From assembly GCA_036229005.1 (NCBI GenBank), contig JAZAMN010000024.1:96001-160000 (forward strand): a stretch of 64,000 bases of DNA, in the 5' to 3' direction. Position numbers and translations under genes: made by a program. Shown one piece after another: positions 7,230 to 24,530 of this stretch. How positions within the stretch are numbered: position 1 is the first letter of the stretch; each line of letters opens with the position of its first letter. This stretch comes from Myxococcota bacterium. Lineage in GTDB: Bacteria; Myxococcota_A; UBA796; CAJQPC01. Under the pieces are notes generated by a model. That model ran no database searches and was not told where the DNA came from. It was given only the letters and a program-made list of their open reading frames with translations.

Positions 7230-7673
7230 ATGCCTACTGATGATCTGTTTGGCGCATACCACTTCCTCCTGGAGATCCAGGGGGTCATCAACGACACCCG
7301 CGTGATCGTCGGCGGCTTCAAGTCCGTGTCCGGCATGGACTCGGAGACGGAGATCGTCGAGTTCAAGCAGGGCAACGACAAGGTCGTTCGTAAGAAGCCG
7401 GGTCGTACCACCTACTCGAACATCGTTCTCGAGCGTGGCTACACCGCGACTGATGACCTCTGGCTCTGGCGGAAGAACATCGAGGACGGCCAGATCGACC
7501 GCCGCTCCGGTTCCGTGATCATCATGGACCAGGATGGCGAGACCGAGGTCGCGCGCTACAACTTCTTCGAGGGTTGGCCCTGCAAGTGGTACGTGCCCGA
7601 CATGGACTCGGATACCTCCGGGATGGCCATTGAGAAGGTCGAGATCGCTGTCGAGAAGGTGGAGCGCGCCTGA
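7230..7673 (+). CDS. tail tube protein 1 (T4 gp19/Afp1-like)
   Basis: F.LEIQG, GGFKSVSG, KPGR..YSNIVLERG, RRSGSV, WPCKW; GAGGA RBS. Confidence 0.95.
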   Translation: MPTDDLFGAYHFLLEIQGVINDTRVIVGGFKSVSGMDSETEIVEFKQGNDKVVRKKPGRTTYSNIVLERGYTATDDLWLWRKNIEDGQIDRRSGSVIIMDQDGETEVARYNFFEGWPCKWYVPDMDSDTSGMAIEKVEIAVEKVERA

Positions 7674-7758: not shown

Positions 7759-8124
7759 ATGGAGCTGAAGACCGAGTACGAGTTCACCCTTCCCCGCGGT
7801 TTCGTCGACAAGGACGGAAACATCCACAAGGAAGGGGTGATGCGCCTTGCGAATGCAAAGGACGAGATCGTTCCCTTGAACGATATGCGCGTCCAGCGCA
7901 ACCGGGCGTACTTGATCATTGTGCTGCTCAGCCGTGTGGTGACCAGGCTCGGTACGCTCTCCGAGGTGAACACGGGCACGGTGGAGAATCTCTTCGCCGG
8001 TGACCTGCGCTTCCTCGAGGAGATGTACAACCGCATCAACGAAGATGAGGCCACGGTACGCGTGACGTGTCCTGAGTGCGGCCACCGCTTCGACAAGGAG
8101 TTCGGCCGCCTGGGGGAATCGTAA
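7759..8124 (+). CDS. eCIS tail assembly chaperone-like protein with C-terminal CxxC
   Basis: TEYEFTLPRGFVDKDG.IH.EGVMRLA...DEI.PL.D.RVQ.N.AYL; VTCPECGH; directly after the tube gene. Confidence 0.8.
   Translation: MELKTEYEFTLPRGFVDKDGNIHKEGVMRLANAKDEIVPLNDMRVQRNRAYLIIVLLSRVVTRLGTLSEVNTGTVENLFAGDLRFLEEMYNRINEDEATVRVTCPECGHRFDKEFGRLGES
8112..8118 (+). other. candidate programmed -1 frameshift site G GGG GAA
   Basis: CTG GGG GAA TCG TAA (frame 0) versus GGG GGA ATC GTA AGC TAC (-1 frame). Confidence 0.65.
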
Positions 8125-8279: not shown

Positions 8280-8390
8280 GTTGCAGGACCGTCTGAGCGC
8301 GTAGTCTTCCTGGGTTTCCTCTGGAAGACTGCGCTTATCCCTTCGTGCACGTCCTCTGGATGTGCGCACCCTCCGACCGTGGATCCTCCC

Positions 8391-9581
8391 ATGAAGCCGG
8401 GCATCTCAGTCCAGCACAGCGCGCTGCCGACCCGCCGCTATGGCGTGGTGCGTGCGGACATTGCCGGGATCGTGGGCTTCATCACCAAGGAGCGCTGGCC
8501 CGTCGATGCGGCCGCCGGTGACTTCCTGGAGCTCAAGCTCCAGCGCTTCCGCGAGCTTGAGGATCACCCGCTGAGAGGTCTCTTCGGCCCGGTCACGACC
8601 GAGTCCGTCCGGAGCTTCTTCAACAACGGCGGAGACGTCTGCTTTCTCTTCGGCGTCTGCCTGGAGGACGCCCGCGAACTCGGCTCGGCCGGCAGCATCA
8701 GCAGTGTGCTGGAGCCATTGATCGTCCGGCTCCGCGGCAACGAGGAGATCGCGCTGCTCGCTGTGCCCGAGGCCGCCTACTTGCCCTGGACCATGTCCCG
8801 GACGGGCACAGTGAGCGCCGCCTGCGAGCCGCTGTATCGTGCGCTTCTGGCGCACTGCCGCGAGATGACCTCGCGTTTCCTGATCATGGATACGCCGCTT
8901 GGACTCCACGACGGAGCCCTGGAGCGGTGGGTCCACGCGTTCAGGAGCCTGGATCAGGACAACCTGAGCTACGGCGCGATGTACTACCCCTGGCTGATGA
9001 ACGGAGAGCGCGCGTTGCCCCCTTCCGCCGCGATGCTGGGGGTGTTCGCTCGGGTGGACCGCGAGCATCAGCCCTACGGGGTGATCTGGCCGCCGGCCAA
9101 CGTGCCCGTCCAGGATGTCACCCACCCGCAGGTCCCGTTGACCTGGGGTGAGGCGCAGCACCTGGCCTCCCAGAGCCTGAACCCCATCCTGACTCAGCCC
9201 GGTCGCGGGGTGTTGGTCTTCGGGGCGCGCACCCTGTCGCACGACCCGAACTGGGCTTTCATCAACTCTCGGCGGATCGCCTCGCTCATCTCGGAGCAGC
9301 TCCGGCGGGACAACGAGTGGGTGGTGTTCGAGACCAACCGCTCAGACATCTGGAAGATCCTCTCTCGCGACGTCCGCGCCCGCCTGGACGAGTTCTGGGA
9401 GCGCGGGATGCTCACTGGTGCCGCCGCTGGCCGGGACTACTGGGTCAAGTGCGACGAAGAGAACAACCCTCGGGAAGAGCGGGAGGCCGGTCGCATGAAC
9501 GTGCTCGTCCGCTTCCGTCCCGTGTCCACCACCGAACACATCACCATCGACCTGCGCTTGAGCCAGGCCGACGCCCGCTGA
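8391..9581 (+). CDS. contractile tail sheath protein 2 (shorter, divergent)
   Basis: PGISV, FFNNGG, YYPWL, PPSAAMLG, PPAN, VFGARTL, FINSRR, VFETN, CDEENNP. Confidence 0.9.
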   Translation: MKPGISVQHSALPTRRYGVVRADIAGIVGFITKERWPVDAAAGDFLELKLQRFRELEDHPLRGLFGPVTTESVRSFFNNGGDVCFLFGVCLEDARELGSAGSISSVLEPLIVRLRGNEEIALLAVPEAAYLPWTMSRTGTVSAACEPLYRALLAHCREMTSRFLIMDTPLGLHDGALERWVHAFRSLDQDNLSYGAMYYPWLMNGERALPPSAAMLGVFARVDREHQPYGVIWPPANVPVQDVTHPQVPLTWGEAQHLASQSLNPILTQPGRGVLVFGARTLSHDPNWAFINSRRIASLISEQLRRDNEWVVFETNRSDIWKILSRDVRARLDEFWERGMLTGAAAGRDYWVKCDEENNPREEREAGRMNVLVRFRPVSTTEHITIDLRLSQADAR

Positions 9582-9593
9582 TCGGAGTCCAAC

Positions 9594-10028
9594 ATGTCCC
9601 GTGAAATCGTCGACCCTGAAGGAAACTTCATCTTCGAGCTGGAGATCGACGGGATCAGCGTCGCCCAGTTCATGGAGTGCAACGGCATCAAGACCACCAC
9701 CACGGTCTTCGAGATCGAAGAGGGTGGGGTGAACCACCGGGTGCACAAGGTCCCCGGCCAGAGCCGCTGGGAGAACCTGGTGCTGCGCTACGGGGTGACC
9801 GCCGACACCACCCTGCTGTCCTGGCGCCAGGAGATCCTGGAGGACGGCTTCGCCAAGCGGCGGAACGGGGCGATCATCATGAAGAACCTCGCGATGGAGG
9901 AGGTCCGTCGCTACAGCTTCACGAACGCCTGGCCAGTGGCCTACGAGGGCCCCAACTTTGTCGCCAACGGCGCGGAGCTGGCCGTCGAGATGATCGAGCT
10001 CGCCCACCAGGGCATCACCGTAAGCTGA
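9594..10028 (+). CDS. tail tube protein 2 (Afp5-like)
   Basis: F.LEIDG, EEGGVN..VHKVPG, NLVLRYGV, NAWPV.YEGP, AVEMIELAH. Confidence 0.92.
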   Translation: MSREIVDPEGNFIFELEIDGISVAQFMECNGIKTTTTVFEIEEGGVNHRVHKVPGQSRWENLVLRYGVTADTTLLSWRQEILEDGFAKRRNGAIIMKNLAMEEVRRYSFTNAWPVAYEGPNFVANGAELAVEMIELAHQGITVS

Positions 10029-10035
10029 GGTCGCC

Positions 10036-13000
10036 ATGAGCACCCAAGAGTTCACAGCACAGCCGCGCCGCGTCCCTGGACAGGGGGTGCTTGAGCGCCT
10101 GGAGCAGCGCAAGCAGCGCCGGCCCCGTATCGGGATGTCGCCGGAGTTCTACGCCCGCTTTGGGATGGCGGATCCGTGGGCAGAGGGCCCTTTGGAGCTG
10201 CAGGACGACCCGGGCTCGCTCTTCACCTATGTCGACGCAACGCGCTACCGGCGGATGATGCGTCGGCTGGCCTTCTCCCGCTGGCGTCGTGAGCGCCGCG
10301 CAAAGCTCTTTCACAGCCGCCGGGTTGGACTGCCCACGGCCGCGCGCCGCGCATTCCCCGGTGAGTCTCGTCGATTCACCTTCGGGCTCCGTACCCTCGG
10401 CCTCTCCGAGATGGTGGTTCCCGAGGCTCCCGAGCCCGAGGTCATCGAGGTCCCCGTCCAGAGCCGGCCCCGCTGGGTGCGAAACGGCATGCGCTCCGTG
10501 GACAACCCCTGGACCCAGACCCGGGGTGGGCCCGCCCGCAGCGTCCAGACCCGGGAGCGTCAGGACGACGGTACGCGCAGTGTGACCACCGACCGGCCCG
10601 CTCGGGTCGCCAGGGCCCGATCCATGGATCGGGTTGGTGCTCGTCTGGAGCAGAGCCAGGCCAGCCGTGACCCCGTCCGCAAGGCCCTGGAGGCCGCTGG
10701 TCCACGTCTGGATCGCCGCACCCAGCGGAAGGTCCAGGCTACGCTCGCAGCAACTGCCCACCTGCCGCCCGCCGAGCGCGCGGTCCGCATCCGAGAGGTC
10801 CTGCGAACCGTCCGTGTCGTCAGGGAGGTCTTCGAGGAGCGTGTCGCTCGGACGGTGCCTTCCAACATGGCGCGCCCTGCCGAGATCGCCAGGGGGCGGG
10901 TTGCTGCTGAGCCTTCGCGTCGCCGTGGCCTGCGTCCGGTGATGGGGCGCTCCCCGTCCATGGATGTGCTCGCCCCGGTCGCCGAGCCCCAGGTCGAGGC
11001 GGCTCCCGCACCTCGCAAGAGCAACACGCAGACCGCTCTGGCGCGCGCGACCACTCGGCGGGTCAGCGCCTGGTCCAAGCCGCCCACGTCAGATGGGGCT
11101 CGGGTGAGTCGGAGCATCAGCCGCTCCCCGGTCGCTCGGAGTGGGGCGCCCCTCAAGCGCACTGCCTCAGGGGCCTTTGTGCCGGCGCGTCGGATGCGCA
11201 CCGTGGAGACCTCGACGGTGCTCAGCAGTGCCGTGAAGACCGCAGAGAGCGCAACCCAAGGGGCAAAGTCCGGCAGCACGCGCACCACCCCGACCTCTGC
11301 TTCCCAGACCCACCGTACCGCCTCCTCCGGGACGACGGTCAGCGGAACCCACAAGACCCAGGGGCAAGAGGCTGTTGGAGCGCGGAGCACCCGGACCTCC
11401 ACCGCTGAGACCCTGGGTGCACGGAGCACCTCGGGAGCCTCTCACGCCGGCGAGGCCACCCGCAGCGCGACCACCGCCAACCGCGAGGACACCGGGGCTC
11501 GCTCCGTCCAGACCGCGGCGGGGGACACGCAGCAGAGTCAGGCGCTTCGCACTCAGGGGCGGGAGTCCCAGGGGGCGCGCAGCTTCACCACGGCCGCAGC
11601 TCAGGCTCGGGGTGTGGAGTCGACCGCCGAGCTTGAGACCACCGGCCTTGGCCATGTCGGTGCCCGCAGCTTCCGGACTGCCGCGAGCGCGCACGCCGCG
11701 GCTCGGGCAGGTGTTCAGCCTCCCTCGCGCGGCGCGCTGCCGACTCCCGCTCGGGTCGCGGCTCGGAGCGCGAGTGGTTCTTTCATTCCCGCTCGTCGGG
11801 TCGCAGGCGCGAGGAGCGAGCAGGCCTCCCCGTCCGACAGTCATGGGGCTTGGGCGCTGCAGCGCCTGGAGCGCACCGGTACCGCGTCCACGGCACGTCG
11901 GGGGCGCTCGCTGCTGCCTCGGATGGCGCCTCGGGCTCCTGAGTCCACCTACGTGGTTCACGCCAACGCCGACCTGGATGTCCAGGCCATGGTCTCGGAG
12001 ATCAAGCGCAGCGTGCCGGGGGCGCAGGTGAGCGTTCGGGAGCCCAAGGCGGTCAAGGCCTGGGGACCTTCGCCGGTCGCAGCGGCTGCGGAGCGCGCGC
12101 AGAAGTCTCCGGTGTTGTCCCAGTCTGCGGGAATGGCGCTGCCCTCCAGCACCGAGCGCAGTCTGCGTCGCGCGGTGGAGAGCAGCGCTCGGGTCGTTCG
12201 CACCCGGAATCCTGTTCGCTACGTGCGGAAGGCCTCAGCGGAGCAGGTGACTCTCGCGGGGGTGGATCCAAACACCCTGACCTCGCTGCCGGCACAGGTG
12301 CGTAAGGCATTGGGAGGCACGGACCCGACCCAGGCGGTGAGGACCGCGCAGGGGGTGTGGATCCCTGCCTCCTCCTTCACCACGGAGAACGCAGGGAGTT
12401 GGTCTGGGGCGCGCGCGCTTCGGACTGCAGCGAGCCGGAGCGCTGGCGCCCGCAGCGGAACCACCCAGAGTGGGAGCGCCGTCGGGGCTGCCCGTCGCCG
12501 GACCCTTGGGAGCCAAGGGACTGGGGCGGCGCGCTTTCGGACGCCGCCGCTCTCGGGTGGGGGCGCGCAGGTGTTCCTGAGCCCGGAGCGTGAGGATGTG
12601 GAGGCTCAGGGCTTCCAGACGACGGCTCGAGAGGATCGGGCAGCGCGCGTCGGCGTCGGTCGGCCTGTGGCCTGGGCTGGTGCTCGCACGCAGCTCACCG
12701 AGACCGGGGCTTGGCAGGGAGCTGAGCGCTTCACGACCGGTCGGGGGGGCTTCGCGCCCGGCGAGCGGGTGCAGGGAGCCAATCGGCAGGCGCGCGGTGC
12801 GCGTCGCAACACGCTCTCTACGCTCGAGGCGCTCTCGGCGCAGGAGTATCAGGCAGGTGGTCCGAGCTGGGCGGAGCGGACCACGCGTCCCTCCCGAATC
12901 CGGACGCCTGGGGACCTGGTCGACCAGCTCGTGCAGGCCCAGGACGTCGAGCAGCTCGTGGGTATCATCGTCGAGCGAGGCGCTGAGATCCGGCCCAACA

Positions 13001-13488
13001 TGGGGCTCCCCAAGCCGGTGATTCAGGTGATCGAGCAGATCCGGAGCGTGGCCGCGGCCGAAGAGCAGGCTGCCCGCTCTGCTGGATCCGGTGGGCGTCA
13101 AGCGCGCGTGGGCGCCCGGGCGAGCACCCGGCGTCGGAACGCCAAGGTCATCCGTGGCTTTGCTTCGTTGAAGGGAGGGACGGCCAGCAGCACCGCCGGA
13201 GTCGGTCCGGACAAGGTGATGAAGCTGGCGTCCAAGCTGCGGAACCTCATTCACCTGGCGGAGGGGGGCCGGACTGCGGATGCCCAGCGTCAGGTCAAGC
13301 TCGCCCACGGGGACCGCCCCGATGGCCGGATGGAGAACGGCACCGACTCCGGGAACTCCGAAACGGCCGCCAAGCAATCTGTAGACATCGAGGCCCTGGC
13401 TCGGGAGGTCCTGGATGTCGTGAACCGTGAGAAGGAGCTCCGACAGGAGCGTCGACAGGAGGAAAGCGATGCTGACGTCTGGTGGTAA
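10036..13488 (+). CDS. 1150-aa Arg/Ala/Ser/Thr-rich low-complexity eCIS protein with C-terminal 'DIEALAREVL' helix
   Basis: GAGG RBS; fills the gap between tube 2 and the tube initiator; overlaps the next gene; C-terminal DIEALAREVLDVVNREKELRQERR resembles ends of eCIS accessory proteins at this position. Confidence 0.75.
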   Translation: MSTQEFTAQPRRVPGQGVLERLEQRKQRRPRIGMSPEFYARFGMADPWAEGPLELQDDPGSLFTYVDATRYRRMMRRLAFSRWRRERRAKLFHSRRVGLPTAARRAFPGESRRFTFGLRTLGLSEMVVPEAPEPEVIEVPVQSRPRWVRNGMRSVDNPWTQTRGGPARSVQTRERQDDGTRSVTTDRPARVARARSMDRVGARLEQSQASRDPVRKALEAAGPRLDRRTQRKVQATLAATAHLPPAERAVRIREVLRTVRVVREVFEERVARTVPSNMARPAEIARGRVAAEPSRRRGLRPVMGRSPSMDVLAPVAEPQVEAAPAPRKSNTQTALARATTRRVSAWSKPPTSDGARVSRSISRSPVARSGAPLKRTASGAFVPARRMRTVETSTVLSSAVKTAESATQGAKSGSTRTTPTSASQTHRTASSGTTVSGTHKTQGQEAVGARSTRTSTAETLGARSTSGASHAGEATRSATTANREDTGARSVQTAAGDTQQSQALRTQGRESQGARSFTTAAAQARGVESTAELETTGLGHVGARSFRTAASAHAAARAGVQPPSRGALPTPARVAARSASGSFIPARRVAGARSEQASPSDSHGAWALQRLERTGTASTARRGRSLLPRMAPRAPESTYVVHANADLDVQAMVSEIKRSVPGAQVSVREPKAVKAWGPSPVAAAAERAQKSPVLSQSAGMALPSSTERSLRRAVESSARVVRTRNPVRYVRKASAEQVTLAGVDPNTLTSLPAQVRKALGGTDPTQAVRTAQGVWIPASSFTTENAGSWSGARALRTAASRSAGARSGTTQSGSAVGAARRRTLGSQGTGAARFRTPPLSGGGAQVFLSPEREDVEAQGFQTTAREDRAARVGVGRPVAWAGARTQLTETGAWQGAERFTTGRGGFAPGERVQGANRQARGARRNTLSTLEALSAQEYQAGGPSWAERTTRPSRIRTPGDLVDQLVQAQDVEQLVGIIVERGAEIRPNMGLPKPVIQVIEQIRSVAAAEEQAARSAGSGGRQARVGARASTRRRNAKVIRGFASLKGGTASSTAGVGPDKVMKLASKLRNLIHLAEGGRTADAQRQVKLAHGDRPDGRMENGTDSGNSETAAKQSVDIEALAREVLDVVNREKELRQERRQEESDADVWW

Positions 13489-15901
13489 GGCGACGTTCAT
13501 CGACCTCGACCTTGGAAGGATCTTTACGGTCCAGTACAACCCCAAGGAATTCAAGGTCGACAAGGCGGTCTCCTGGAAGGAGCACGACGACCAGGGCCAG
13601 TCGCAGGCCCCCCTTGAGTTCCAGAAGGGGGCGCCCATCGTGGTCACGATGGAGCTCATCTTCGACACGACCCACGACGGTTCGGACGTCCGGAGCAAGG
13701 TGCAGGGCCTGATGGCCTTCACCAACGCGGACGTGCCGGTGCAGGGCGAAGGGTCGATGGACAAGAAGCGTCCGCCGCATCTGCAGTTCACTTGGGGCAA
13801 CTTCACGATCACCTGCGTGATCGAGTCCCTCAACGTCAGCTACCTGATGTTCTCCAGCGGCGGTAAGCCCATCCGGGCGCGCGTCTCGCTCAAGCTCAAG
13901 GAGTGGGAGCCCAAGGATGCCGCTGGTGGCAGCGGTGGCAGCGGGATCAGCGGCAGCAAGATCAAGCTGGTGAGCGCGGGGGCCGGGGCAACGGCCAGCT
14001 CGCTTGCCTCCCAGCACGGGACGACCGCGCGCCAGATCATGGATGACAACAACATCGATGACGGCATGGACATCCCGGCGGGCACGGAGCTCGTGATCAA
14101 CGATCCGAGCGGTGGGCCCGGCAACGTCAGCTCCAACCGCAACCAGACCTCGTCGGACTCTCCCTTCCAGGAGATCCAGGACGCCATCTCCGAGGTCCAG
14201 AAGGTGGTCAAGGAGGTCGAGAAGACCAAGAAGCAGATCGAGCAGATCTTCAACCCGACCGCGGGCAAGCCTCCTGGCAGCAAGGGAGGCTCCGGCCGTC
14301 CCGGCAGCGGTGGCGTCGCTGGCGCCCCTGGTTTCCCGGGTGCTGGTGGCGGAAAGCCGGGTAGCGCTCCCGGTGGCGCAGGCGGCTCCGGACCTGGCTA
14401 CGGTGGCGGCTACGGCGGCGGTGCAGGCGGTCCTGGCGGCGGCGGTGCAGGCGGTCCCGGTGGCGGCGGTGCAGGCGGTCCTGGCGGCGGCGGTGCAGGC
14501 GGTCCTGGCGGCGGCGGTGCTGGTGGCGGCGCAGGCGGTGCTGGTGGCGGCAAGCCCGGTGGCGGTGGCTCTTCCGGTGGTGCTGGTGGCGGCAAGCCCG
14601 GTGGCGCAGGAGGCTCCGGCGGTGGCGCTGGTGGCGGTAAGCCCGGCGGCGGTGGCTCCTCTGGTGGTGCTGGTGGGGGCAAGCCCGGCGGCGCTGGTGG
14701 TGCTGGCGGCGGCGCTGGTGGTTCCGGTGGCGGCGCAGGTGGTGCTGGCGGCGGCGCAGGTGGTTCCGGCGGCGGCGCTGGTGGTTCCGGCGGCGGCGCA
14801 GGTGGTGCTGGCGGCAGCGCAGGCGGTGCTGGCGGTGGCGCAGGTGGCTCCGGCGGTGGTGCCGGCGGCGCAGGTGGCTCTGGCGGTGGTGCTGGCGGCG
14901 CAGGTGGCTCCGGCGGTGGTGCTGGCGGCGCAGGCGGTTCCGGCGGTGGTGCTGGCGGCGCAGGTGGCTCCGGCGGCGCAGGCGGGTCCGGCGCGGGTGC
15001 TGGCGGCGCAGGCGGTGCCGGCGGTGCTGGCGGCGCAGGTGGCTCCGGCGGTTCCGGCGGCTCCGGCAGTGGCAAGCCCGGCGGCGGTAGCAGTTCGGGT
15101 GGGTCCAGCGGGTCCGGCGGCAAGCCTGGTGGCTCCGGCGGCGGTGCAGGCGGTGGTGCTGGCGGCGCAGGTGGCTCCGGCGGTTCCGGCAGTGGCAAGC
15201 CCGGAGGCGGTAGCAGTTCGGGTGGGTCCAGCGGGTCCGGCGGCAAGCCCGGTGGCTCCGGCGGCGGTGCAGGCGCAGGCGGCGCAGGTGGCTCCGGCGG
15301 TGCAGGCGCAGGCGGCGCAGGTGGCTCCGGCGGTGGTGCAGGCGCAGGCGGCGCAGGTGGCTCCGGCGGTGGTGCAGGCGCAGGTGGCTCCGGCAGTGGC
15401 GCCGGCGGATCCGGCTCCGGCAAGCCCAGCGGCGGCAGCTCCTCCTCTTCTGGAGGGGCCGGCGGCAAGCCGGGTGGTGCCGGTGGCTCGGGCGGCGGTG
15501 CGGGGGCTGGTGGCGCTGGCGGCTCCGGCTCTGGCAAGCCTGGCGGGGGCAGCTCGTCGGGTGGCAGCTCCTCGGGTGGCAAGCCCAGCGGTGCCGGCGG
15601 CTCCGGGAGCAGTGGTGGCTCGTCGAGCGGCAAGCCCAGCGGTGGGAGCTCGTCGGGCGGAGGTGGAGCCAAGCCCAGCAGCGCGGGTGGCGGCAGCTCT
15701 TCGGGCGGGAAGCCCAGGGGAGGCAGCAGCTCGGGTAGCGGCGGCAGCGGCCCCTCAGGCAGCAGCAGCGGCTCCAGTGGACCTTCGGGTCCTCGTGGTC
15801 CCCGTCAGGCGAACACCCAGGGTGGAGGCCGAAAGGTGGCCTCCGACGTCAAGTCGGCCAAGGCGAAGGCTGAGGCCAAGGCTTCGGAAGGAAAGGAGTA
15901 G
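13469..15901 (+). CDS. CIS tube initiator (Afp7-like)/LysM protein with a very long Gly-rich C-terminal extension
   Basis: AGGAGG RBS then ATG 13469; VQYNPKEF, LIFDTT, PPHLQFTWG, F.SGGKPIRARVSLKLKE; LysM-like 'ATASSLASQHG..ARQIMDDNNIDDGMDIPAGTELVI'; then ~500 aa of G/A/S/P/K. Confidence 0.85.
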   Translation: MLTSGGKATFIDLDLGRIFTVQYNPKEFKVDKAVSWKEHDDQGQSQAPLEFQKGAPIVVTMELIFDTTHDGSDVRSKVQGLMAFTNADVPVQGEGSMDKKRPPHLQFTWGNFTITCVIESLNVSYLMFSSGGKPIRARVSLKLKEWEPKDAAGGSGGSGISGSKIKLVSAGAGATASSLASQHGTTARQIMDDNNIDDGMDIPAGTELVINDPSGGPGNVSSNRNQTSSDSPFQEIQDAISEVQKVVKEVEKTKKQIEQIFNPTAGKPPGSKGGSGRPGSGGVAGAPGFPGAGGGKPGSAPGGAGGSGPGYGGGYGGGAGGPGGGGAGGPGGGGAGGPGGGGAGGPGGGGAGGGAGGAGGGKPGGGGSSGGAGGGKPGGAGGSGGGAGGGKPGGGGSSGGAGGGKPGGAGGAGGGAGGSGGGAGGAGGGAGGSGGGAGGSGGGAGGAGGSAGGAGGGAGGSGGGAGGAGGSGGGAGGAGGSGGGAGGAGGSGGGAGGAGGSGGAGGSGAGAGGAGGAGGAGGAGGSGGSGGSGSGKPGGGSSSGGSSGSGGKPGGSGGGAGGGAGGAGGSGGSGSGKPGGGSSSGGSSGSGGKPGGSGGGAGAGGAGGSGGAGAGGAGGSGGGAGAGGAGGSGGGAGAGGSGSGAGGSGSGKPSGGSSSSSGGAGGKPGGAGGSGGGAGAGGAGGSGSGKPGGGSSSGGSSSGGKPSGAGGSGSSGGSSSGKPSGGSSSGGGGAKPSSAGGGSSSGGKPRGGSSSGSGGSGPSGSSSGSSGPSGPRGPRQANTQGGGRKVASDVKSAKAKAEAKASEGKE
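14260..15800 (+). repeat. coding glycine-rich repeat region
   Basis: 24-nt unit (GAGGPGGG) x4 at 14420-14515; 30-nt GAGGAGGSGG units at ~14840-14975; near-identical ~87-nt blocks at ~15065-15151 and ~15188-15274; recurring GKPGG/GKPSG. Confidence 0.9.
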
Positions 15902-15904: not shown

Positions 15905-16942
15905 ATGTCTTCGCAGCCTCGCTCCACCGCGGTCGGCTTTGAAGTGACCATCGGTGGCCAGACCTTCACCCAGGCCTCGGAAGAGGGTGGTGTGCAGATG
16001 CTGGTCGTCGAGGATCACGTCGATATGACCGACATGCTCACCCTCCGGATGGGCGGGACCCAGGGCCAACCGGACTGGAACTGGAAGATCGGCGACGAGG
16101 TCGAGTGCAAGCTCGGCAGCGGCGGCACCATCTTCAAGGGGCAGATCACCGCCATGGAGCCCGGGTACCAGGTCGAAGGGACCAGCACGGTCACCCTGCG
16201 GGCCATGGACCAGATGCACAAGCTGGGCCGTGGCCGGAAGACCCGCACCTTCGAGGACATGAAGGACTCCGACGTCGTCAGCCAGGTCGCCGGTGAGGCC
16301 GGCATCCCGACGGGCAACATCGAGGCCACTTCGGAGATCCACCCCTACATCCTGCAGCGCAACGAGTCCGACGTCGCCTTCCTCAAGCGGCTGGCGGCGC
16401 GGAACAACTACCTGCTGACCATGGAGGACGGGTCCATCGCCTTCAAGCGCGCCCAGTTCGGTGGCGGTGGGTACAAGCTCAAGATGGGGGACAACCTGCG
16501 CAGCATGCGGATGTCCTTCAACTCCATGGACCAGGTCCAGAAGGTGGTCGTGCGCGGGTGGGACCCCCACACCAAGCAGGCCATTGTCGGGGAGGCCACC
16601 ACGGCCGACGTCGAGCGCATCGGCGGAGGTGAGGTGGGCGCGGACACCGCGGGCCAGTTCGGAGAGTCCACTGCGTACATCACCGATGTGCCGGTGTTCT
16701 CCCAGGCCGCCGCCAACGAGATCGCAAAGGTCGAGATGAACCGGCTCGCCCGTCAGTTCGGCCGCGGCAGCGCCACGGTCCAAGGCAACGAGCAGATCCG
16801 CGCGGGCACGACCGTCGAGGTCGAGGGGCTCCAGAAGGGCAACAACGGCACCTTCTTCATCCTCTCCAGCCGGCACGTGATCTCCAACCGCTCCGGCTAC
16901 ACCACCGAGTTCAGCTTCTGCACCAACACGATGGGCACCTGA
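15905..16942 (+). CDS. phage late control D / gp27-like hub (N-terminal half of Afp8/VgrG)
   Basis: IFKGQITAMEP, RTFEDMKDSDVVSQVA, ILQRNESDVAFLKRLA.R, VVVRGWDP..KQAI; ends without a gp5 OB-fold or beta-helix. Confidence 0.88.
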   Translation: MSSQPRSTAVGFEVTIGGQTFTQASEEGGVQMLVVEDHVDMTDMLTLRMGGTQGQPDWNWKIGDEVECKLGSGGTIFKGQITAMEPGYQVEGTSTVTLRAMDQMHKLGRGRKTRTFEDMKDSDVVSQVAGEAGIPTGNIEATSEIHPYILQRNESDVAFLKRLAARNNYLLTMEDGSIAFKRAQFGGGGYKLKMGDNLRSMRMSFNSMDQVQKVVVRGWDPHTKQAIVGEATTADVERIGGGEVGADTAGQFGESTAYITDVPVFSQAAANEIAKVEMNRLARQFGRGSATVQGNEQIRAGTTVEVEGLQKGNNGTFFILSSRHVISNRSGYTTEFSFCTNTMGT

Positions 16943-17037: not shown

Positions 17038-17427
17038 GTGTCTCAGCGAGACTTTCTCGGGAAGGGGTGGGCATTCCCCTTCGGATTCGACCGCGCGAGC
17101 GGTGGGGTCCGGACCTCCTCGGGCGAGGAGAACATCCGGCAGTGCATCACCGTGATCCTGTCCACCCGGCCGGGTGAGCGGCAGATGCTCCCGGAGTTCG
17201 GCTGTCGGCTGCACGAGGTCCTGTTCGCGCCGAACACCCAGGCGACCTCGGCGCTCATCGCGCACCATGTCAAGACCGCGCTCGTCCGCTGGGAGCCACG
17301 CATCGAGGTGCTGGACGTGCAGGCCCAGGCCCAGGCTGATGGGTCGGTCAACGTCGACGTGCACTACCTGATCAAGGCCACGAACACCCGCCAGGTCCAC
17401 ACCACGGCCCTGGCCAACACCCGCTGA
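17038..17427 (+). CDS. GPW/gp25 baseplate protein (Afp9-like)
   Basis: FLGKGWAFP, ILSTRPGER.M.PEFGC, RWEPRI. Confidence 0.92.
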   Translation: MSQRDFLGKGWAFPFGFDRASGGVRTSSGEENIRQCITVILSTRPGERQMLPEFGCRLHEVLFAPNTQATSALIAHHVKTALVRWEPRIEVLDVQAQAQADGSVNVDVHYLIKATNTRQVHTTALANTR

Positions 17428-17433: not shown

Positions 17434-20400
17434 ATGCCGATCAAGCCGCCAAACCTCGACGATCGCCGCTACGAAGACATCGTCGCCCAGGCACGCTCCC
17501 TGATCCCCCAGTACACCCCCGAGTGGACCAACCTGGGGGACGCGGATCCGGGAATGACCCTCGTCCAGCTCTTCGCCTGGATGACGGAGATGACGATCTA
17601 CCGGCTCAACCGGGTGCCGGACAAGACCTACATCCACTTCCTGAACTTCATCGGCGAGGAGCGCCGGGCGGCCCGACCCTCCGTGGCTCCGGTGACGTTC
17701 AGGCTGCGGGCGGATCACCCGGTCGAGGTCCCTGCGTTCACAAAGGTCGCTACCCGGCAGCGTGAAGACCTTCCGGCGCTGGACTTCCTGACCTCGCAGG
17801 CGCTGACCGTGCACGACAGCAAGGTCGTACGCGTCATGGCCGTCAAGGGTGGGCCCACCCCCTCCGTGCGGGAGTTGCCCTTCTCCTGGCTCGGTGGAGA
17901 CCCCAGCGCGCTCTCCTTTGCCGGTGGAGCGGGCGTCGCGGTCTTCGAGATCGACCCCCTGCACTTCGGGCCGGACGCCTACACCCCGCATCAGTACCTC
18001 TACTTGGGCCACGACGACCTCCGCCTGATGGACATCGATCCCGAAGAGGACACGGACCGGCCCCTCGGACGCCTCCAGGCCCGCCGGCGCTCCGGCGACC
18101 CCCTGTCGATCATCAACTTCTTCCGCTGGGAATACCCCACGGAGCAGGGCTGGCAGCCGATCTACGTCGAGCGCGAGGGCGAAGCCCCCTACGGCATCCC
18201 CGAGCACACCCTGATCACGGCCATGCCGGGCATCATGCCGCTGGATCGCTTCGGGCTCCAGGGCGCGGAGTTCATCAAGCCGGCCTCCGTCCGCGACCAG
18301 GACTGGTGGATCCGCGGGACTCTGGACTACGAGGCCTGGATGGCCGCCCGGATGGATCAGGAGTCGCGTGAGCAGGGTGGGGGAGACCTCTCCATCACCT
18401 GGCACGATGACCGCGGCGGCGAGGTCCGGGAGCTCAACAACTGGTCGGTGCGCGCTGCGGGCCGGACGCTGGAGTTCTACCTCAAGGATGCCCCCCTGAT
18501 CCGCGGTGGCTGGTCCCTGCGGCTCTCTCTGGTGGACCGGGGGCTGCAGGCGGGGAGGACGGCTGCGTTCCCCAAGTACCGCTTCTCCTACCGCCGGGGT
18601 GAGGTCTGGCAGCCCATCCCTGACGATCGCGTCCGGGTCGAGGGCACCGAGATCATCCTCCACGGTCCCCTCAACGACATGGCCCGCGACGGCTACAACC
18701 TGCGGGCGGAGCGCATCGAGACGGTGTTCCTGCGCGGGCTCATCAAGGACCTGGAGCTGGACCTGAACTGGTCCCGGCCGGTCGAGCTCTCCCTGCTCGC
18801 GGGTGACAACCCCTTGTCGCTCGTGCAGCTCCCCATGGACGAGCGCCCCTGGTCTCCCTTCCAGATGTCGTCGGTGCTCCCGCCCACCATCGGGCGGCGC
18901 CTCTACATCGGCTCGGACCTCTTCGAGAACCGGCAGAAGCTGCCCATCCTGGTCGAGTTCGAGATCGCCTTCGAGCTCAACGGCGAAGAGATCGAGGAGC
19001 CCGTCGACGACTACAAGCTGCAGCTCACCTACCGCGCCGACGACAACTGGCGCGTGGTCTACAGCCCAGACCAGCGCTACGCCGGCTTCACCCTCTCGGA
19101 CATCGACCCCGAGGGCGCGAAGAAGGCTGGGCGGCGCCGGGTGCGCATCGTCATCGACCCCGCCGAGCAGCTCAAGGGACTGGCCCGCCACGAGGTCTCC
19201 AACATCGAGACCACCTGGCTGCGGCTGGAGCTCATCAAGTCCAACCTCACCGGTCAGGACAAGAAGAAGAACGTGCACCCGGTGGTGCCGCGCATCCACA
19301 ACCTCCGCCTGGGGCCCGAGAAGACCCTGGGGATGGAGGCCTACGACCAGCCCATGCCCAACCCCCTGGTGGCCCAGGTGGATCACCGCGAGCAGAACCG
19401 CCGCTTGACGCGCTGCGTGTCCCGGGTGGCCGGCCGGACCTCGGAGAAGCACCCCTTCTTCCGCTTCGTGGACCTGGAGGAGGAGACCCTGTCCCTCTAC
19501 CTCCAGTTCGACAAGCCGCTCCCCCGGGGAGAGCGCCACGCCCTGCACTTCCGCTGCCGCGGCGAGGCCTTCCTGCCCGAGGGCACCTACGTGGAGTGGG
19601 AGATCCTGGAGCGCCGGCAGCACGGCCGCACCGCCTGGCGTCGGCTGGTTTCCTCCGGTGACAGCGGCCCGGGTGTCTACGAGCTCTCCCGCAGCGGCGA
19701 GCTGGAGTTCGCCCTCCCGGACATCCCCCCGGTTCCGGACGACGGCTTCTGGCTGCGCGCCCGCTTCGTCCTGCCCGAGGACACCGGCCTGGACGCGCTC
19801 CCCGGTCTGCCGCCCCTGACCCACCTGATGCTGAACACCGTCGAGGTGGTCAACCTGGACACCGTCCGCGCCGAGCGCTTCTCGGGACTGGGGGTGCCCA
19901 ACCAGGTGCTGGAGCTGCGCGAGCACCCCATCTTCATCCACCCCGGAGAGCAGGACAAGGCGGTCTTCCCGCGGCCCGAGCTGTTCACGGACGTGGCCGT
20001 GACCGTCATCTACCCCGACGGCACCCGCGAGCCCTGGTACCGGGTCGATGACCTGCTGCTCACCGGCAAGGACGACCCGGTCTACACCGTGGACCCCGTG
20101 GACGGCACGCTGCACTTTGGCAACGGCATCCGCGGCCGCATGCTGCCCGTCGGGACCAACAACGTCCTGGTCGACGTCTACCACGTCGTCCCCGGCGAGA
20201 AGGGCAACATCGGGGCCCACGAGATCCGCGTCGCGGACGGCTTCGGGGACCGGGTGGAGATCTCCAACCTGCTGCCGGCCACCGGCGGGCGGGACGCCGA
20301 GTCCATCGACGAGATCATCGAGCGGGCCCCCTCGCTGCTGACCTCCCGGGACCGGGCCGTGACCCGTCAGGACTTCGAGATCATCGCCATGGAGGCCTCC

Positions 20401-20946
20401 GGCGAGGTCGCTCGCGCCGCCTGCGTGGGCGAGATGAAGCGGGACGGCACCGTCGATGTGGTGGTGCTCCCCCGGCGCCGCGAGGGCGAGATCCTGCCCG
20501 ACCCCTTCCTGAGCGTGGGCCTGCGGGACCACGTGGAGAGCTACCTGAACCGCCGCTGCCTGATCAACGTGCAGCCCAAGGTCCGGCTGGCCAGCTTCCT
20601 GCCCATCGACGTGAGCATCACCCTGCGGCTGCGGCCCAACGCCAACGTGCTGGTGGTCCGGGAGCAGGCCGAGCTTTGGATCCGCTACTTCCTGGACCCC
20701 TATGTCGGCGGGCTGGACGGCGAGGGCTGGCCCTTCTCCGCCACCCTCTTCGCCCAGGACTTCGGCCGAATGGTCGCCGACATCGCCGAGGTGCGGCACG
20801 TCTCCGAGGTGCGCGTCTACGACGTCAGCGACAAGGCCCGCCGCGCCCCCGGCTGGGAGGAGAGCGAGGGCGTCGAGGAGCTGCACCTGGACCGCCATGA
20901 CCTGGTGGCGGTGCGCAAGGTGCGCGTGAAGATCGAGGACCGCTGA
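17434..20946 (+). CDS. baseplate J/gp47-like wedge protein (Afp11-like), 1170 aa
   Basis: PNLDDRRY.D, PEWTN..DADPG.TL..LFAW, YRLNRVP, FGNG.RG, GGRDAES, RAVT..DFE, GWPF. Confidence 0.92.
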   Translation: MPIKPPNLDDRRYEDIVAQARSLIPQYTPEWTNLGDADPGMTLVQLFAWMTEMTIYRLNRVPDKTYIHFLNFIGEERRAARPSVAPVTFRLRADHPVEVPAFTKVATRQREDLPALDFLTSQALTVHDSKVVRVMAVKGGPTPSVRELPFSWLGGDPSALSFAGGAGVAVFEIDPLHFGPDAYTPHQYLYLGHDDLRLMDIDPEEDTDRPLGRLQARRRSGDPLSIINFFRWEYPTEQGWQPIYVEREGEAPYGIPEHTLITAMPGIMPLDRFGLQGAEFIKPASVRDQDWWIRGTLDYEAWMAARMDQESREQGGGDLSITWHDDRGGEVRELNNWSVRAAGRTLEFYLKDAPLIRGGWSLRLSLVDRGLQAGRTAAFPKYRFSYRRGEVWQPIPDDRVRVEGTEIILHGPLNDMARDGYNLRAERIETVFLRGLIKDLELDLNWSRPVELSLLAGDNPLSLVQLPMDERPWSPFQMSSVLPPTIGRRLYIGSDLFENRQKLPILVEFEIAFELNGEEIEEPVDDYKLQLTYRADDNWRVVYSPDQRYAGFTLSDIDPEGAKKAGRRRVRIVIDPAEQLKGLARHEVSNIETTWLRLELIKSNLTGQDKKKNVHPVVPRIHNLRLGPEKTLGMEAYDQPMPNPLVAQVDHREQNRRLTRCVSRVAGRTSEKHPFFRFVDLEEETLSLYLQFDKPLPRGERHALHFRCRGEAFLPEGTYVEWEILERRQHGRTAWRRLVSSGDSGPGVYELSRSGELEFALPDIPPVPDDGFWLRARFVLPEDTGLDALPGLPPLTHLMLNTVEVVNLDTVRAERFSGLGVPNQVLELREHPIFIHPGEQDKAVFPRPELFTDVAVTVIYPDGTREPWYRVDDLLLTGKDDPVYTVDPVDGTLHFGNGIRGRMLPVGTNNVLVDVYHVVPGEKGNIGAHEIRVADGFGDRVEISNLLPATGGRDAESIDEIIERAPSLLTSRDRAVTRQDFEIIAMEASGEVARAACVGEMKRDGTVDVVVLPRRREGEILPDPFLSVGLRDHVESYLNRRCLINVQPKVRLASFLPIDVSITLRLRPNANVLVVREQAELWIRYFLDPYVGGLDGEGWPFSATLFAQDFGRMVADIAEVRHVSEVRVYDVSDKARRAPGWEESEGVEELHLDRHDLVAVRKVRVKIEDR

Positions 20947-22034
20947 TGCTGCCCACCCTCCGCCGCGGCGGCCCGCCGGATCTGCGTGATGACTACCTGC
21001 ACCTGCGCACGGTGGTCCAGATCCGCTACCCCGTCCGACAGGCCCAGGCTTATCTGAGGCGGGTGTTGGGCAACCCCGTCCGGGTGCACCTCGTCGAATC
21101 GCAGCGGGGCGAACCCATCGGGAACGTCCGTGCCATCGAGGTCTTCCCGGCCGCGGGGGGCGACCCGGTGCTCCTGCGCGCGGTCCGCTGCCTGCCCGAC
21201 GGCAGTGAGGCTGGCCCCTTCGTGCCGGAAGAGCTCACCGAGACCCAGGTGCGCGTGACCACCTGGGACGGCCGGCCCCCTCCCGGGCTCGGTCCCCAGG
21301 ACTGGGTGATCCTGCACGTCCCGGTCAAGAGCTACATGCGCTTTCTGCCCGGGGCCTTCCAGGGCGCCGTGCCCATGCAGCGCAAGGATGTCGTCCGGGC
21401 GGACGAGGTCAGCCTGCGCCGCTGGGGACACGGCGAGAGCCAGGAGCAGAGCACCGAGGTCCAGGCGCAGGACGCAGACGCCATGCGGCGGATGCTGTTC
21501 ATCTTCCAGCACCTGATGACCACGGTGGTCGACAAGGTCACCGACATCCCGTCCATCACGGACCCGCTGACCTGCGATCCCCGATTCCTGCCCTGGATGG
21601 CGAGCTGGGTGGGCTTCTCGCTGGACGAGAGCCTGCCCCTGCACCAGCAGCGTGAGCTCACCCGCCGGGCCATCCGGCTGTACCGCACCCGCGGCACCAA
21701 GCAGGGGATGGAGGAGATCGTCAAGGTCCTCACCAACGCCCCGGTGGCTGTGTCCGAGCGGGAGAAGCCCCAGCCCTTCGTGCTGGGCGCGGCGACCCTG
21801 GCTGGCGGCGCGAACATCTCCGAGCGCTACGAGCGCGGAGAGCCGCCTCCCTTCTACCTGGTGCGGCCCGAACGGCCGGACATCTCCTTCTTTGCCCTGG
21901 TCCTGGAGCGTCGCGAGCGCTTTCAGCGCCGCTTCTCCGAGCGCGCCCCCGAGGTGCTCCGTCGCATCTCCAAGGTGGTGACGGACGAGAAGCCCGCCCA
22001 CGTGACCTTCACCATCCGCTTCGAGAAACGCTGA
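20946..22034 (+). CDS. phage tail protein I-like baseplate protein
   Basis: YMRFLP..F, DP.TCDPRFLPWMASWVG, AIRLYR.RGT..G, EKPAH; TGATG coupling. Confidence 0.85.
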   Translation: MLPTLRRGGPPDLRDDYLHLRTVVQIRYPVRQAQAYLRRVLGNPVRVHLVESQRGEPIGNVRAIEVFPAAGGDPVLLRAVRCLPDGSEAGPFVPEELTETQVRVTTWDGRPPPGLGPQDWVILHVPVKSYMRFLPGAFQGAVPMQRKDVVRADEVSLRRWGHGESQEQSTEVQAQDADAMRRMLFIFQHLMTTVVDKVTDIPSITDPLTCDPRFLPWMASWVGFSLDESLPLHQQRELTRRAIRLYRTRGTKQGMEEIVKVLTNAPVAVSEREKPQPFVLGAATLAGGANISERYERGEPPPFYLVRPERPDISFFALVLERRERFQRRFSERAPEVLRRISKVVTDEKPAHVTFTIRFEKR

Positions 22035-22044: not shown

Positions 22045-22968
22045 ATGGAGTTCTCCCGCCTCAACCCCTTCGAGGGGCTCTGCCTGACCAGCGCGGACCT
22101 GCGCGACGAGCAGGCCTACCACCGCCAGAACCTGCACCGCCACGCCAACTACATGCACAGCCACGGCATCGTGCAGGGCCTGCAGGTGGAGCTGGAGTCC
22201 CGGCAGGGCAAGTACCTGGCGCGCATCTCCGCCGGCTACGGCCTGACCCGCGCGGGCCAGGGCGTGGAGCTCGAAGAGGCCAAGCAGGTCATCCTCGAGG
22301 TCCCCAAGCAGGACGGCGAGTACATGCTCTGGCTCTTCCACGTGGAGCAGCCCGACGAGCACAGCCAGCGGCCGGTCTTTGACACCCAGGAGCTCCGTGC
22401 CGCCCGGGTGTTGGAGCGGGCCGCCCCCGCGCTGCATCCCGCGGACGAGGACCACGATGGCGCCGTGGCGCTGGCCCGACTGAACGTGCGCCTGGGGCGC
22501 ATCGTGCACGTCAAGCTCCCCGTTCCTCGGGCGGGTCGGCAGGCGCGGGCAGCGGAGAGCTACCTCAAGCCCCGGGTGGTGGAGTTCATCCGTCTGAGCA
22601 AGAAGGTCATGCAGAACCTCTTCAGGACGGCCTTGGTCAAGGAGCTGGACCTGGCGGTGCTGAACTTCTCCAGCGCCTTGGTGAGCTCCGAGTTCCTGCT
22701 GATCGAGGAGGGGACCGCCGACCGCGTGCTCTACCGCACCGCAGGCAGCCTGATCAGCTACGCGCACGACTACTACAACGCCATGCCCCGCACGACGGAC
22801 CGGGTGGCCAAGTTCACCGAGTTCGTGCGGCGGGTGCATGCCGAGCTGCCCGGCCAGGAGCAGGGCGACGAGGTCTGGCTCAAGTGGTTCGAGAAGTTCG
22901 AGCGCCTGCTCACCCCGCTGAACAAGATCAGCGAGGAGCTCGAGAAGACCGTCGAGGCCCAGCGATAG
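22045..22968 (+). CDS. Afp13/Pvc13-like baseplate-attachment domain fused to a helical C-terminus
   Basis: RLNPFEG..LTS.DLRDEQAYH...H.HGIVQGLQV...ISAGYGL...G pattern of eCIS fibre-attachment N-termini. Confidence 0.65.
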   Translation: MEFSRLNPFEGLCLTSADLRDEQAYHRQNLHRHANYMHSHGIVQGLQVELESRQGKYLARISAGYGLTRAGQGVELEEAKQVILEVPKQDGEYMLWLFHVEQPDEHSQRPVFDTQELRAARVLERAAPALHPADEDHDGAVALARLNVRLGRIVHVKLPVPRAGRQARAAESYLKPRVVEFIRLSKKVMQNLFRTALVKELDLAVLNFSSALVSSEFLLIEEGTADRVLYRTAGSLISYAHDYYNAMPRTTDRVAKFTEFVRRVHAELPGQEQGDEVWLKWFEKFERLLTPLNKISEELEKTVEAQR

Positions 22969-23009
22969 CTGTCCCCGGGGGCTCCGCGGCCTCCTGTTAG
23001 ACTCCCGCC

Positions 23010-23921
23010 ATGCACGTCGATCCCAGCGCCGCCCAAGCCTCCACCGTCAAGGTGCGGGTGCAGGTGATCGACGTGGAGCCCAGGACCCTGGATCTGACCC
23101 TGCCGGCCTACCTCCCGGCGAAGGATCTGACCCAGCGCGTCGCCCGGGACGCCGGCTTGCCGGACTACTGGCCCGATGGCCACCGCCGCGAGTACTGGCT
23201 GCGGGCCCGGGGGCGCGTGCTGCTCCCGGATGAGAACCTGCAGGATCTGGGCGTGGTCCGGGCCGAGCTGCTGCACCTGCTCCCGGTGCCCCTGGACATG
23301 TCCGAGGTGTTGGAGCGCTACCCCGAGTACCCCGAGACCCGGGGCTACTCCGCAAAGGGCTGGCCTGCGCTGCTGACCTCCGCGGCGGTGCTGCTGCTGT
23401 GGATCGCGGGCTGGGGCCTGGCGCTCTCGGCGTCGCGGAGCTGGGGGGTGACGACCCTGCCGGGCTTTGGCCTGGGGCTCTTCTCGGTCAGCCTGGCCCG
23501 GCACATCTTTGGCGGCGAAGGCTGGCGCTCGCGGGTGGCGGCCGTCGGGTTGGGAATCGGCGTCGCTGCGCTGATCCCCGCCCTGGGGTTGGCCTTCGCG
23601 CTGGGCGCGGAGCTCTCCGTCTTGCAGGTGCAGGGCGCTGTTGGCCTGGGCTTTGTGCTGGCCGGGGTGCTCTTTGGCTGGCTGGCGTGGTGGGGGGCGG
23701 TCGAGCCCCTGGAGAAGCTGCCCGAGCCCGTCAAGGTCGTGGACGCCAAGGAGGTCGTGCACACCTGCGGGATCTGCGGCGGTCAGGTCGACCACAGCGT
23801 GCTGCTGAGCTGCCAGTATCGCTGCGGCCGGGTCTTCCACACCGGCTGCTACAACGCGCGGATGGCCGTGTATCGGGGCGACCCCGGCAACTGTGGGATC
23901 TGCGGCACCCCGGTGGCCTGA
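23010..23921 (+). CDS. membrane protein: ubiquitin-like N-domain, ~4 TM helices, C4HC3 zinc finger
   Basis: VRVQVID...TLDLTLP...YWLRARGRVL.PDENLQDLGV....LLHL (YukD/Ubl-like); hydrophobic segments; C-x2-C-x11-C-x3-C-x4-H-x2-C-x14-C-x2-C. Confidence 0.75.
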   Translation: MHVDPSAAQASTVKVRVQVIDVEPRTLDLTLPAYLPAKDLTQRVARDAGLPDYWPDGHRREYWLRARGRVLLPDENLQDLGVVRAELLHLLPVPLDMSEVLERYPEYPETRGYSAKGWPALLTSAAVLLLWIAGWGLALSASRSWGVTTLPGFGLGLFSVSLARHIFGGEGWRSRVAAVGLGIGVAALIPALGLAFALGAELSVLQVQGAVGLGFVLAGVLFGWLAWWGAVEPLEKLPEPVKVVDAKEVVHTCGICGGQVDHSVLLSCQYRCGRVFHTGCYNARMAVYRGDPGNCGICGTPVA

Positions 23922-24421: not shown

Positions 24422-24485
24422 CTTGGCCTCCGGCGAGGTTGGGGCGCTTAGCGCGACGCGCCGCGATCGTCACGCCCAAACAGGC

Positions 24486-24530
24486 TTGCAATAATGATTT
24501 GCGTATGTCATAGTAAGTGGGCAAATCATT
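24486..24530 (+). promoter_or_regulatory. sigma70-type promoter overlapped by a perfect 10-bp inverted repeat (candidate MarR operator)
   Basis: TTGCAA (24486-91), 17 nt, CATAGT (24509-14); AATGATTTGC (24493-24502) N18 GCAAATCATT (24521-24530) in an AT-rich patch. Confidence 0.65.

Follow-up and report, generated by a model that had tools for sequence, protein, structure and literature searches.

Bacterial operons that encode E1, E2, JAB and ubiquitin-like (Ubl) proteins have been described, and a pair of Ubl and JAB genes was reported from the tail-assembly clusters of lambdoid phages (PMC1779556). Bil and Bub are presented as Ubl conjugation operons of bacteria (PMC11601603). As far as these sources describe them, most bacterial Ubl operons have no known target, and the phage-tail target belongs to an invading phage (PMC11601603; 10.1101/2023.09.04.556158). 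YukD is described to act non-covalently in the assembly of a secretion machine, the type VIIb system (PMC12637312). For phage-tail-like contractile injection systems (CIS), conserved membrane proteins of the respective clade were proposed as membrane recruiters, namely CisA in Streptomyces (PMC12237407) and Hbor_38620 in haloarchaea (PMC11566945). TssK is a known link between baseplate and membrane: its shoulder binds the baseplate and its head binds the membrane complex TssL/TssM, shoulder and neck being assigned to residues 1-315 (PMC6300606). Fibre genes of the eBAP3 type follow Tail_P2_I genes, and eBAP3 is reported to resemble TssK (PMC12923769). A full-text search, in which most hits were judged by title or the beginning of the abstract, revealed no publication that couples a CIS to a Ubl cascade. 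Prokaryotic RINGs, YukD-like Ubls and E1-E2-JAB-RING-Ubl operons were reportedly treated by Burroughs et al. in 2011, and this work could include a similar architecture. The gene described here, which we call T, is linked to a CIS and has a surprising ancestry; its parts are known and the coupling appears to be new, and the supplementary data of PMC12923769 may include its upstream neighbour c1 among the eBAP3 genes.

T lies in a stretch of 64,000 nucleotides from a Myxococcota bacterium (contig JAZAMN010000024.1, positions 96,001 to 160,000; hereafter the window) and directly follows a CIS locus on the forward strand. The first CIS gene encodes a Pvc16_N cap protein (4509..5357), followed by a sheath protein (5361..7157), a gp19 tube protein (7230..7673), a highly conserved 121-aa CIS protein which by eye is a putative tail chaperone (7759..8124), a second sheath protein (8379..9581) and a second gp19 tube protein (9594..10028). 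Further downstream are a 1150-aa low-complexity protein with conserved ends and no Pfam match (10036..13488), a CIS_tube and LysM protein with a long Gly/Ser-rich tail (13427..15901, the start being likely the ATG near 13469), a GPD baseplate hub in which no Gp5_OB spike domain was detected (15905..16942), a gp25 wedge protein (17038..17427), a Baseplate J-like protein of 1170 aa (17434..20946), a Tail_P2_I (TssG/Cis12-like) baseplate protein (20946..22034) and c1 (22045..22968). Pfam was the basis for the assignment of the cap, sheath, tube, hub, gp25, Baseplate J and Tail_P2_I genes. The tail of the CIS_tube-LysM protein comprises roughly 550 Gly/Ser-rich residues, while most homologs called elsewhere have 190-340 aa.

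The eCIS/Cis-type gene set is present in the window (Pvc16, sheath, tube, CIS_tube-LysM, hub, gp25, baseplate J and P2_I). Genes for a spike, an AAA ATPase or a receptor-binding fibre were not found among the ORFs of the locus, and none of these ORFs matched TssL, TssM or TssJ. The Gp5_OB genes of this genome are located on other contigs than the CIS of the window. One such region (G000:C2:72385-75390, L091) contains two tandem Gp5_OB spike genes together with a gene that is PAAR-like by eye, and these genes are possibly the spike module of the window CIS. The label eCIS may be wrong for this locus, since the slot of the fibre gene is occupied by a conserved TssK-like protein without a head.

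T (23010..23921, forward strand) starts with ATG and encodes 303 aa, in which a Ubl domain, four transmembrane (TM) helices and a C4HC3 finger are fused. A preliminary description from the sequence alone had proposed a beta-grasp N-terminus and about four TM helices for a gene co-oriented with the CIS genes and 41 nt past the last of them; all of these points were borne out. According to the ORF coordinates the gap between the stop of c1 (22968) and the start of T (23010) is 41 nt. The YukD-type beta-grasp domain extends over residues 12-92 (23043..23285). Pfam YukD (PF08817) covers residues 15-90 with 31.1 bits at a cut-off of 27, and a match at E<=0.1 was obtained for 120/120 aligned homologs, the best 120 of 283 homologs that were found among 8000 scored candidates. 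The AlphaFold2 model, which was built on the alignment of these 120 homologs (mean pLDDT 88.9, pTM 0.61), has the beta-grasp at 12-92, a small finger at 251-301 and four long hydrophobic helices at 118-141, 145-166, 174-197 and 202-230, which match the maxima of hydropathy in the alignment. The predicted TM part thus spans residues 118-230 (23361..23699) and the finger residues 251-301 (23760..23912). VIA-align of the model with ubiquitin-family domains gave Z 10-11 at an rmsd of about 2 A. EccD of ESX-3/5, also a Ubl and TM protein, was among the top Foldseek matches; these fold searches bear on the Ubl and barely probe the finger and the TM part.

Conservation is highest in the Ubl (0.82), followed by the finger (0.65) and the TM part (0.59), as would be expected if the Ubl is a binding surface. 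Invariant positions in the Ubl are R43, R46, D47, W54, R59 and R67. The loop that joins helices 2 and 3 has conserved Arg residues, and the N-terminus is not hydrophobic, which by the positive-inside rule suggests that both termini are cytoplasmic. T is essentially a single-copy gene with about 50% identity across seven families of its order. An HMMER search of 1.84 billion representatives yielded 108 matches, all of them at most 320 aa long, and 0 of 107 candidate stretches in viral contigs were confirmed. Outside the order, a sample of 301 genomes of the phylum gave only three weak matches, two of which led to the Ubl genes of sister lineages described below; the third, in G199, covers the finger region.

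T shares the YukD-type Ubl with YukD, EsaB and EccD, and with EccD also the combination of Ubl and TM helices. EccD is described with about 12 TM helices (PMC1779556), whereas T has four and a finger. YukD, EsaB and EccD are encoded among T7SS genes, whereas the neighbours of T are CIS genes, and EccD is not among the 25 families listed for the 120 T homologs. Like CisA (PMC12237407) and Hbor_38620 (PMC11566945), T is a conserved membrane protein of a CIS clade. An analogy to the Streptomyces membrane adaptor, suggested in the preliminary description, does not extend to the build of the proteins: CisA is described as single-pass with an unstructured N-terminus and a periplasmic C-domain, which sets it apart from T with its four TM helices (PMC12237407). 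Hbor_38620 is described with six TM helices and a cytoplasmic domain of 150 aa (PMC11566945). As far as these sources describe them, neither of the two recruiters has a Ubl or a finger, while T has both (PMC12237407, PMC11566945).

The finger of T reads C253-x2-C256-x11-C268-x3-C272-x4-H277-x2-C280-x14-C295-x2-C298. All eight ligands are invariant in the 120 aligned homologs, the exact spacing is retained in 108/120, and T is the sole protein with a C4HC3 pattern among the 5443 genes called in the genome. PHD fingers have the spacing C-x2-C..C-x2-4-C-x4-5-H-x2-C..C-x2-C, which T shares, and carry a Trp two residues before ligand 7. This Trp is absent from T, the respective column being R/S/G/N/T/K in 110/120 homologs. 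Pfam PHD matches residues 253-286 with 18.3 bits, below the cut-off of 24, and the finger matches the Pygopus PHD weakly (E 0.011). Fingers of the RING-CH/RINGv type space ligands 3-5 as C-x1-C-x7-H, unlike the C-x3-C-x4-H of T, and RINGv is absent among the 25 families listed for the 120 homologs. Of the original assignment to PHD fingers or membrane RING-CH ligases, the C4HC3 ligand set stands, with the spacing of PHD fingers or prokaryotic C4HC3 RINGs; the RING-CH/RINGv type does not. T resembles PHD and MARCH/Doa10 RING-CH proteins in the ligand set and in a finger joined to TM helices, and differs from them in spacing (not RINGv), in the lack of the PHD Trp, in the C-terminal position of the finger and in that no cognate E2 was found in its genome.

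Between ligands 1 and 2, a hydrophobic residue is conserved in 120/120 homologs, and other positions generally known as E2 contacts of RINGs are not kept. According to a review, prokaryotic RINGs use C4HC3 (PMC11354881). With this ligand set, and with the PHD Trp and most E2-contact residues gone, the finger reads best as a descendant of a RING-type E3 whose E2 was since lost. The search for a cognate E2 in the genome of the window gave 0 matches, a search that a very diverged E2 would escape.

It was also asserted earlier that T has a candidate promoter of its own. A TG-n-TAGACT element (22995..23003, forward strand) ends 6 nt before the ATG and may be a leaderless extended -10 promoter. The pattern TANNNT precedes 9/34 T starts and 3/148 starts of other CIS genes. 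A scan for consensus promoters gave no site before T, and the distance from the preceding stop codon to the start of T is at most 10 nt in 14/32 loci measured. A promoter of T may be real, but only in some lineages. One run of a public RNA library yielded six contigs on the locus, one of which spans the c1/T junction (22886-23145). This is no proof of co-transcription, since DNA may be present in the RNA library. A MarR gene on the reverse strand (23927-24421) converges on T, and the only sigma-70-like site of the scan lies at 24467-24495 (forward strand); neither is conserved beside T in other loci.

For analysis of the linkage between T and the CIS we used 127 genomes of the order with a completeness of 80% or more. 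Matches to T were obtained in 117 of them and matches to c1 and to baseplate J in 118 each, and eight genomes, which represent six genera, have none of the three. Of the ten genomes without T, eight also lack both CIS markers tested (c1 and baseplate J). The 121-aa gene was checked in five of these eight: three do not have it, G264 keeps it with 84% identity and G144 has a distant match. G329 has c1 and baseplate J without a T match in an assembly of 1850 contigs; in G003 only the baseplate J match is missing and in G369 only the c1 match. Some of the losses may be assembly gaps. Fisher's test for the co-occurrence gives p 3e-10, a value that is overstated because related genomes are not independent.

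T directly follows c1 (at most 200 nt downstream) in 85/117 genomes. The distance is up to 4 kb in 11 genomes and larger, but on one contig, in 2; in 18 the two genes are on different contigs, and one genome has no c1 match; for G386, G292 and G038 this count used a fragment match and not the best match. The two genes are separated in certain genera (G033, G038, G027, G007, G356), and true moves among the 18 cases on different contigs include those in G033, G038 and G027. In G027 T was relocated together with a gp25 gene (L052:7738-9014). The CIS of G168 is decayed, most of its genes reaching 27-45% identity; here the ORF right after c1 is T-like, with a weak Ubl match and a finger that is only partly kept. 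The entire CIS locus of this genome (G168:C87:44000-57800, L067) evolves very fast and represents a natural case of relaxed selection. A baseplate J tree (FastTree, 39 rows) clusters mostly by host family. That the adjacency of T and the CIS might be incidental, as had been allowed for, is contradicted by the co-occurrence, the gene order and the joint loss, and T can be regarded as linked to the CIS.

The upstream gene c1 encodes 307 aa without a Pfam match. Its profile matched a single PDB entry, the N-terminus of Cis19 from Anabaena (E 0.009), which is described as a crown protein (PMC8894136), and it aligns below cut-off to the start of NCBIfam CIS13. The model consists of a beta-sandwich followed by a helical bundle. 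All Foldseek matches listed at E<=0.001 are TssK or IglD (E 4e-7 to 9e-5, TM 0.36-0.46, rmsd about 10 A). By model and Foldseek, c1 thus has a TssK/eBAP3-like shoulder and a helical neck, and the protein ends with the neck, where the head of TssK would begin; a C-terminal head or fibre domain is absent. c1 shares the shoulder and neck fold with TssK and the position after a Tail_P2_I gene with eBAP3, and differs from both in the lack of a head and of a variable receptor-binding domain and in that TssL, TssM and TssJ are missing from the ORFs of its locus. Its identity across the order is about 70%, and the neck (0.83) is as conserved as the shoulder (0.80). Together with the absence of a variable binding domain this suggests a conserved partner inside the cell, for which T is a candidate. 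In other classes of the phylum, more distant CIS loci (L113-L115) end in a protein of 510-520 aa with a c1-like shoulder, and no T, E1 or E2 gene was seen after it.

With the c1 profile, homologs at a greater distance were detected in f8 and f9, two families that belong to the class but not to the order of T. The genes after c1 encode in these families a ThiF-family E1 of about 450 aa with a conserved Cys, a TM protein of roughly 200 aa with a Cys finger (TM-finger), a YukD-type Ubl as a separate protein (free Ubl) and a UQ_con E2, which has an HPN motif and an invariant Cys. The f8 and f9 loci combine an E1, an E2 with catalytic Cys and a free Ubl in one operon, the gene set of a Ubl conjugation operon. 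The E2 profile is found in 12/13 genomes of f8 and 2/2 of f9, in 0/11 of the other three families of the class and in 1/127 of the order of T. For the E1 profile (E<=1e-30) the respective numbers are 12/13, 2/2, 1/11 and 2/127, and Pfam UQ_con matches in 1/86 genomes of the order. The single E2 of the order (G346, L116:2164-7749) belongs to a sporadic operon separate from the CIS, with E1, JAB, a TM protein, a RING-like protein and an E2-TPR protein. c1 directly precedes E1 in 10/14 genomes with E2, including G117, where a contig break lies before the remaining genes; in G218 the two genes are 6.6 kb apart and in G070 they are on different contigs. G199 and G394 have the E1-E2 operon without a baseplate J match, so the operon may have work independent of the CIS. 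Among 17 metagenome loci of this kind, c1 directly precedes E1 in nine, two pairs of which look like duplicates; it is 6.8 kb away in one, absent within 7.5 kb in one, and six loci are too short.

The free Ubl ends in Ala in f8 (12/12) and in AG (G117) or AG with a tail (G064) in f9, where a JAB gene is nearby. The f8 Ubl (L106:12644-12931) is 92-98% identical across genera, far above its neighbours. Of the eight ligands in the f9 finger, those at positions 5 and 6 are His, and the f8 finger has four Cys only. At cut-off, no NCBIfam model matched the sister proteins, also with regard to an identity with Bil or Bub. A Cys-rich gene of these loci was considered as JAB; it was rejected as such and is the E1. 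With Bil, Bub and the E1-E2-JAB-RING-Ubl operons the sister loci have in common an E1 with Cys, a UQ_con E2 with HPN and Cys, a free Ubl and, in f9, JAB. Unlike these known operons, they end the CIS locus of the cell itself, include a four-TM finger protein and are nearly fixed in their families. A further difference is that the order of T keeps only the Ubl-TM-finger fusion.

Both halves of T are homologous to proteins of these operons. HHalign gave 96.9% for residues 125-303 of T with the TM-finger proteins and 95.0% for residues 9-98 with the free Ubls, the sister alignments consisting of five rows each. The Gly at the end position of the f9 Ubl is kept in 103/120 T homologs, while T of the window has Met there. 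The parts are arranged as TM-finger and Ubl in the sister families and as Ubl and TM-finger in T, and this inverted order means that a fusion needs a rearrangement. A derivation of the T Ubl from the C-terminal domain of E1, which would keep the gene order, was rejected (HHalign 0.1%). The branching between the order and the two sister families is not resolved in the baseplate J tree, so that the direction, a fusion from an ancestor with split genes, is based on parsimony and the Gly remnant. Since the sister lineages carry the parts of T as separate genes beside E1 and E2, T likely represents what is left, in fused form, of a tagging system of the ubiquitin type. This agrees with the initial guess that T belongs to a bacterial ubiquitin-like system.

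A second CIS of the same genome (G000:C50:1149-21434, L090) has its own Gp5_OB gene and also ends in a TM protein with a finger (C-x9-C-x15-C-x2-C). HHalign of this finger with that of f8 gave 81.6% and a score of 45, compared to at most 19 in 30 shuffles. Homologs of the protein occur in 29/110 genomes of the order; in 6/6 fetched loci they are preceded by the same two genes. The locus encodes three more membrane or secreted proteins (1024, 486 and 540 aa), which are, together with the finger protein, a candidate trans-envelope complex. A Ubl in the membrane protein, suspected by eye, was not supported (HHalign 0.08%), nor was homology of the gene in c1 position to c1 (0.4%, within the shuffles). 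A cluster of genes for a pseudokinase-like protein, an SLT protein with an N-terminus that is FHA-like by eye, a 237-aa protein and a Ser/Thr kinase (L044:13257-19863; G000:C25:262-3826 and C40:1-1219) follows T in many genomes, and SLT genes also flank f9 operons. Tandem Ubls seen by eye in the tail of a pseudokinase-linked protein were not supported (HHalign 1.8%).

Architecture, co-occurrence, gene order and homology make T a core gene of the CIS, and its function is best interpreted as that of a putative membrane anchor or trigger. We propose that T is a dock at the inner membrane that works independently of E1 and E2 and presents a permanent Ubl tag, likely via c1, and assign this proposal a probability of about 0.48. 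In f8 and f9 the cascade would attach the Ubl at the membrane to the TM-finger protein or to a part of the baseplate, with the TM-finger as E3, and this tag would license docking of the CIS. Fusion of Ubl and TM-finger may have made the conjugation product constitutive; as the tag would then be permanent, E1 and E2 could become dispensable and be lost in the order of T. Ubl and finger of T would face the cytoplasm and bind the baseplate of the CIS, giving a membrane-attached and not a free-floating machine, and T would act non-covalently, like YukD in type VIIb secretion. Two of the three roles guessed earlier, the Ubl system and the membrane anchor or trigger, turn out to merge into one story. 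We count the second CIS, which ends in a membrane protein with a finger, in favour of docking. Against it, c1 lacks the head of TssK, so that a new membrane interface must be assumed, some genera have T and c1 at separate places, G329 yields no T match although c1 and baseplate J are present, and G199 and G394 seem to keep the cascade without a CIS. A wider and more tentative version holds that this class of uncultured Myxococcota runs its CIS by a Ubl switch, in which the membrane RING with E1 and E2 licenses docking or firing in f8 and f9, and the order of the window has the finished conjugate in one gene.

The main rival to docking is a regulatory role without structural anchoring: T would be a membrane regulator that triggers, blocks or times assembly or firing of the CIS in response to a signal sensed by finger or Ubl, and it may do so jointly with the kinase and FHA-SLT genes that are often nearby. 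The co-occurrence of T and CIS also fits this, relocated T genes often have a -10-like element of their own, and kinase-like genes were present in 13/37 and an SLT gene in 9/37 fetched loci. As a precedent, conjugation of the Bil Ubl to a protein of a phage's tail is described to block tail assembly and infectivity (10.1101/2023.09.04.556158). We nevertheless consider this role less likely than docking, because T is the only TM protein identified in the locus and directly follows a gene with TssK fold, no sensor domain is evident in it, and the kinase/SLT cluster lies elsewhere in this genome. There is only a small chance that T is still active in conjugation, with the Ubl cut at the conserved Gly and transferred and the finger acting as E3 for an unrecognised E1 and E2. 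The Gly and the hydrophobic residue between ligands 1 and 2 (103/120 and 120/120) fit such an activity, as do JAB-family genes in 52/67 genomes of the order; however, JAB also occurs in genomes without T, the only JAB match of this genome adjoins a MoeB/ThiF gene, the other E2-contact positions of RINGs are not kept, T of the window lacks the Gly, and E2 is restricted to 1/86 (UQ_con) or 1/127 genomes (sister profile), the latter in an unrelated operon.

A small multi-pass membrane protein at the end of a locus, with an SLT gene nearby both in the order and in f9, could also be a release factor for a conventional extracellular CIS, either holin-like or an adaptor for envelope remodelling. This is quite improbable, as none of the 120 homologs matched a holin family, conservation is lower in the TM part than in the Ubl (0.59 and 0.82), and the homologs linked to E1 and E2 would be left unexplained. 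An injected effector, the third of the early guesses, would agree with the frequency of PHD/RING-like fingers in eukaryotes and with the weak Pygopus match, but one conserved copy per genome across seven families, four TM helices, a CIS tree that follows the host families and joint loss with the CIS do not support a eukaryote-targeting role. We regard this explanation, together with the largely refuted one of an incidental neighbour, as very improbable.

The presence of the CIS in more than 90% of the genomes of the order and a tree that follows the host families point to a core cellular role and not to a mobile weapon. The docking proposal offers a candidate answer to the question how a CIS without TssJLM is attached to the membrane, with the headless TssK as the likely link. 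If the wider version with a Ubl switch is true, CIS would have a new principle of membrane anchoring, the target of a bacterial membrane E3 would be defined, and nature would provide a case in which a gene fusion took the place of a post-translational modification. The four-gene cascade, tied to a tail-derived machine of the cell itself, names candidate substrates and could be rebuilt in vitro.
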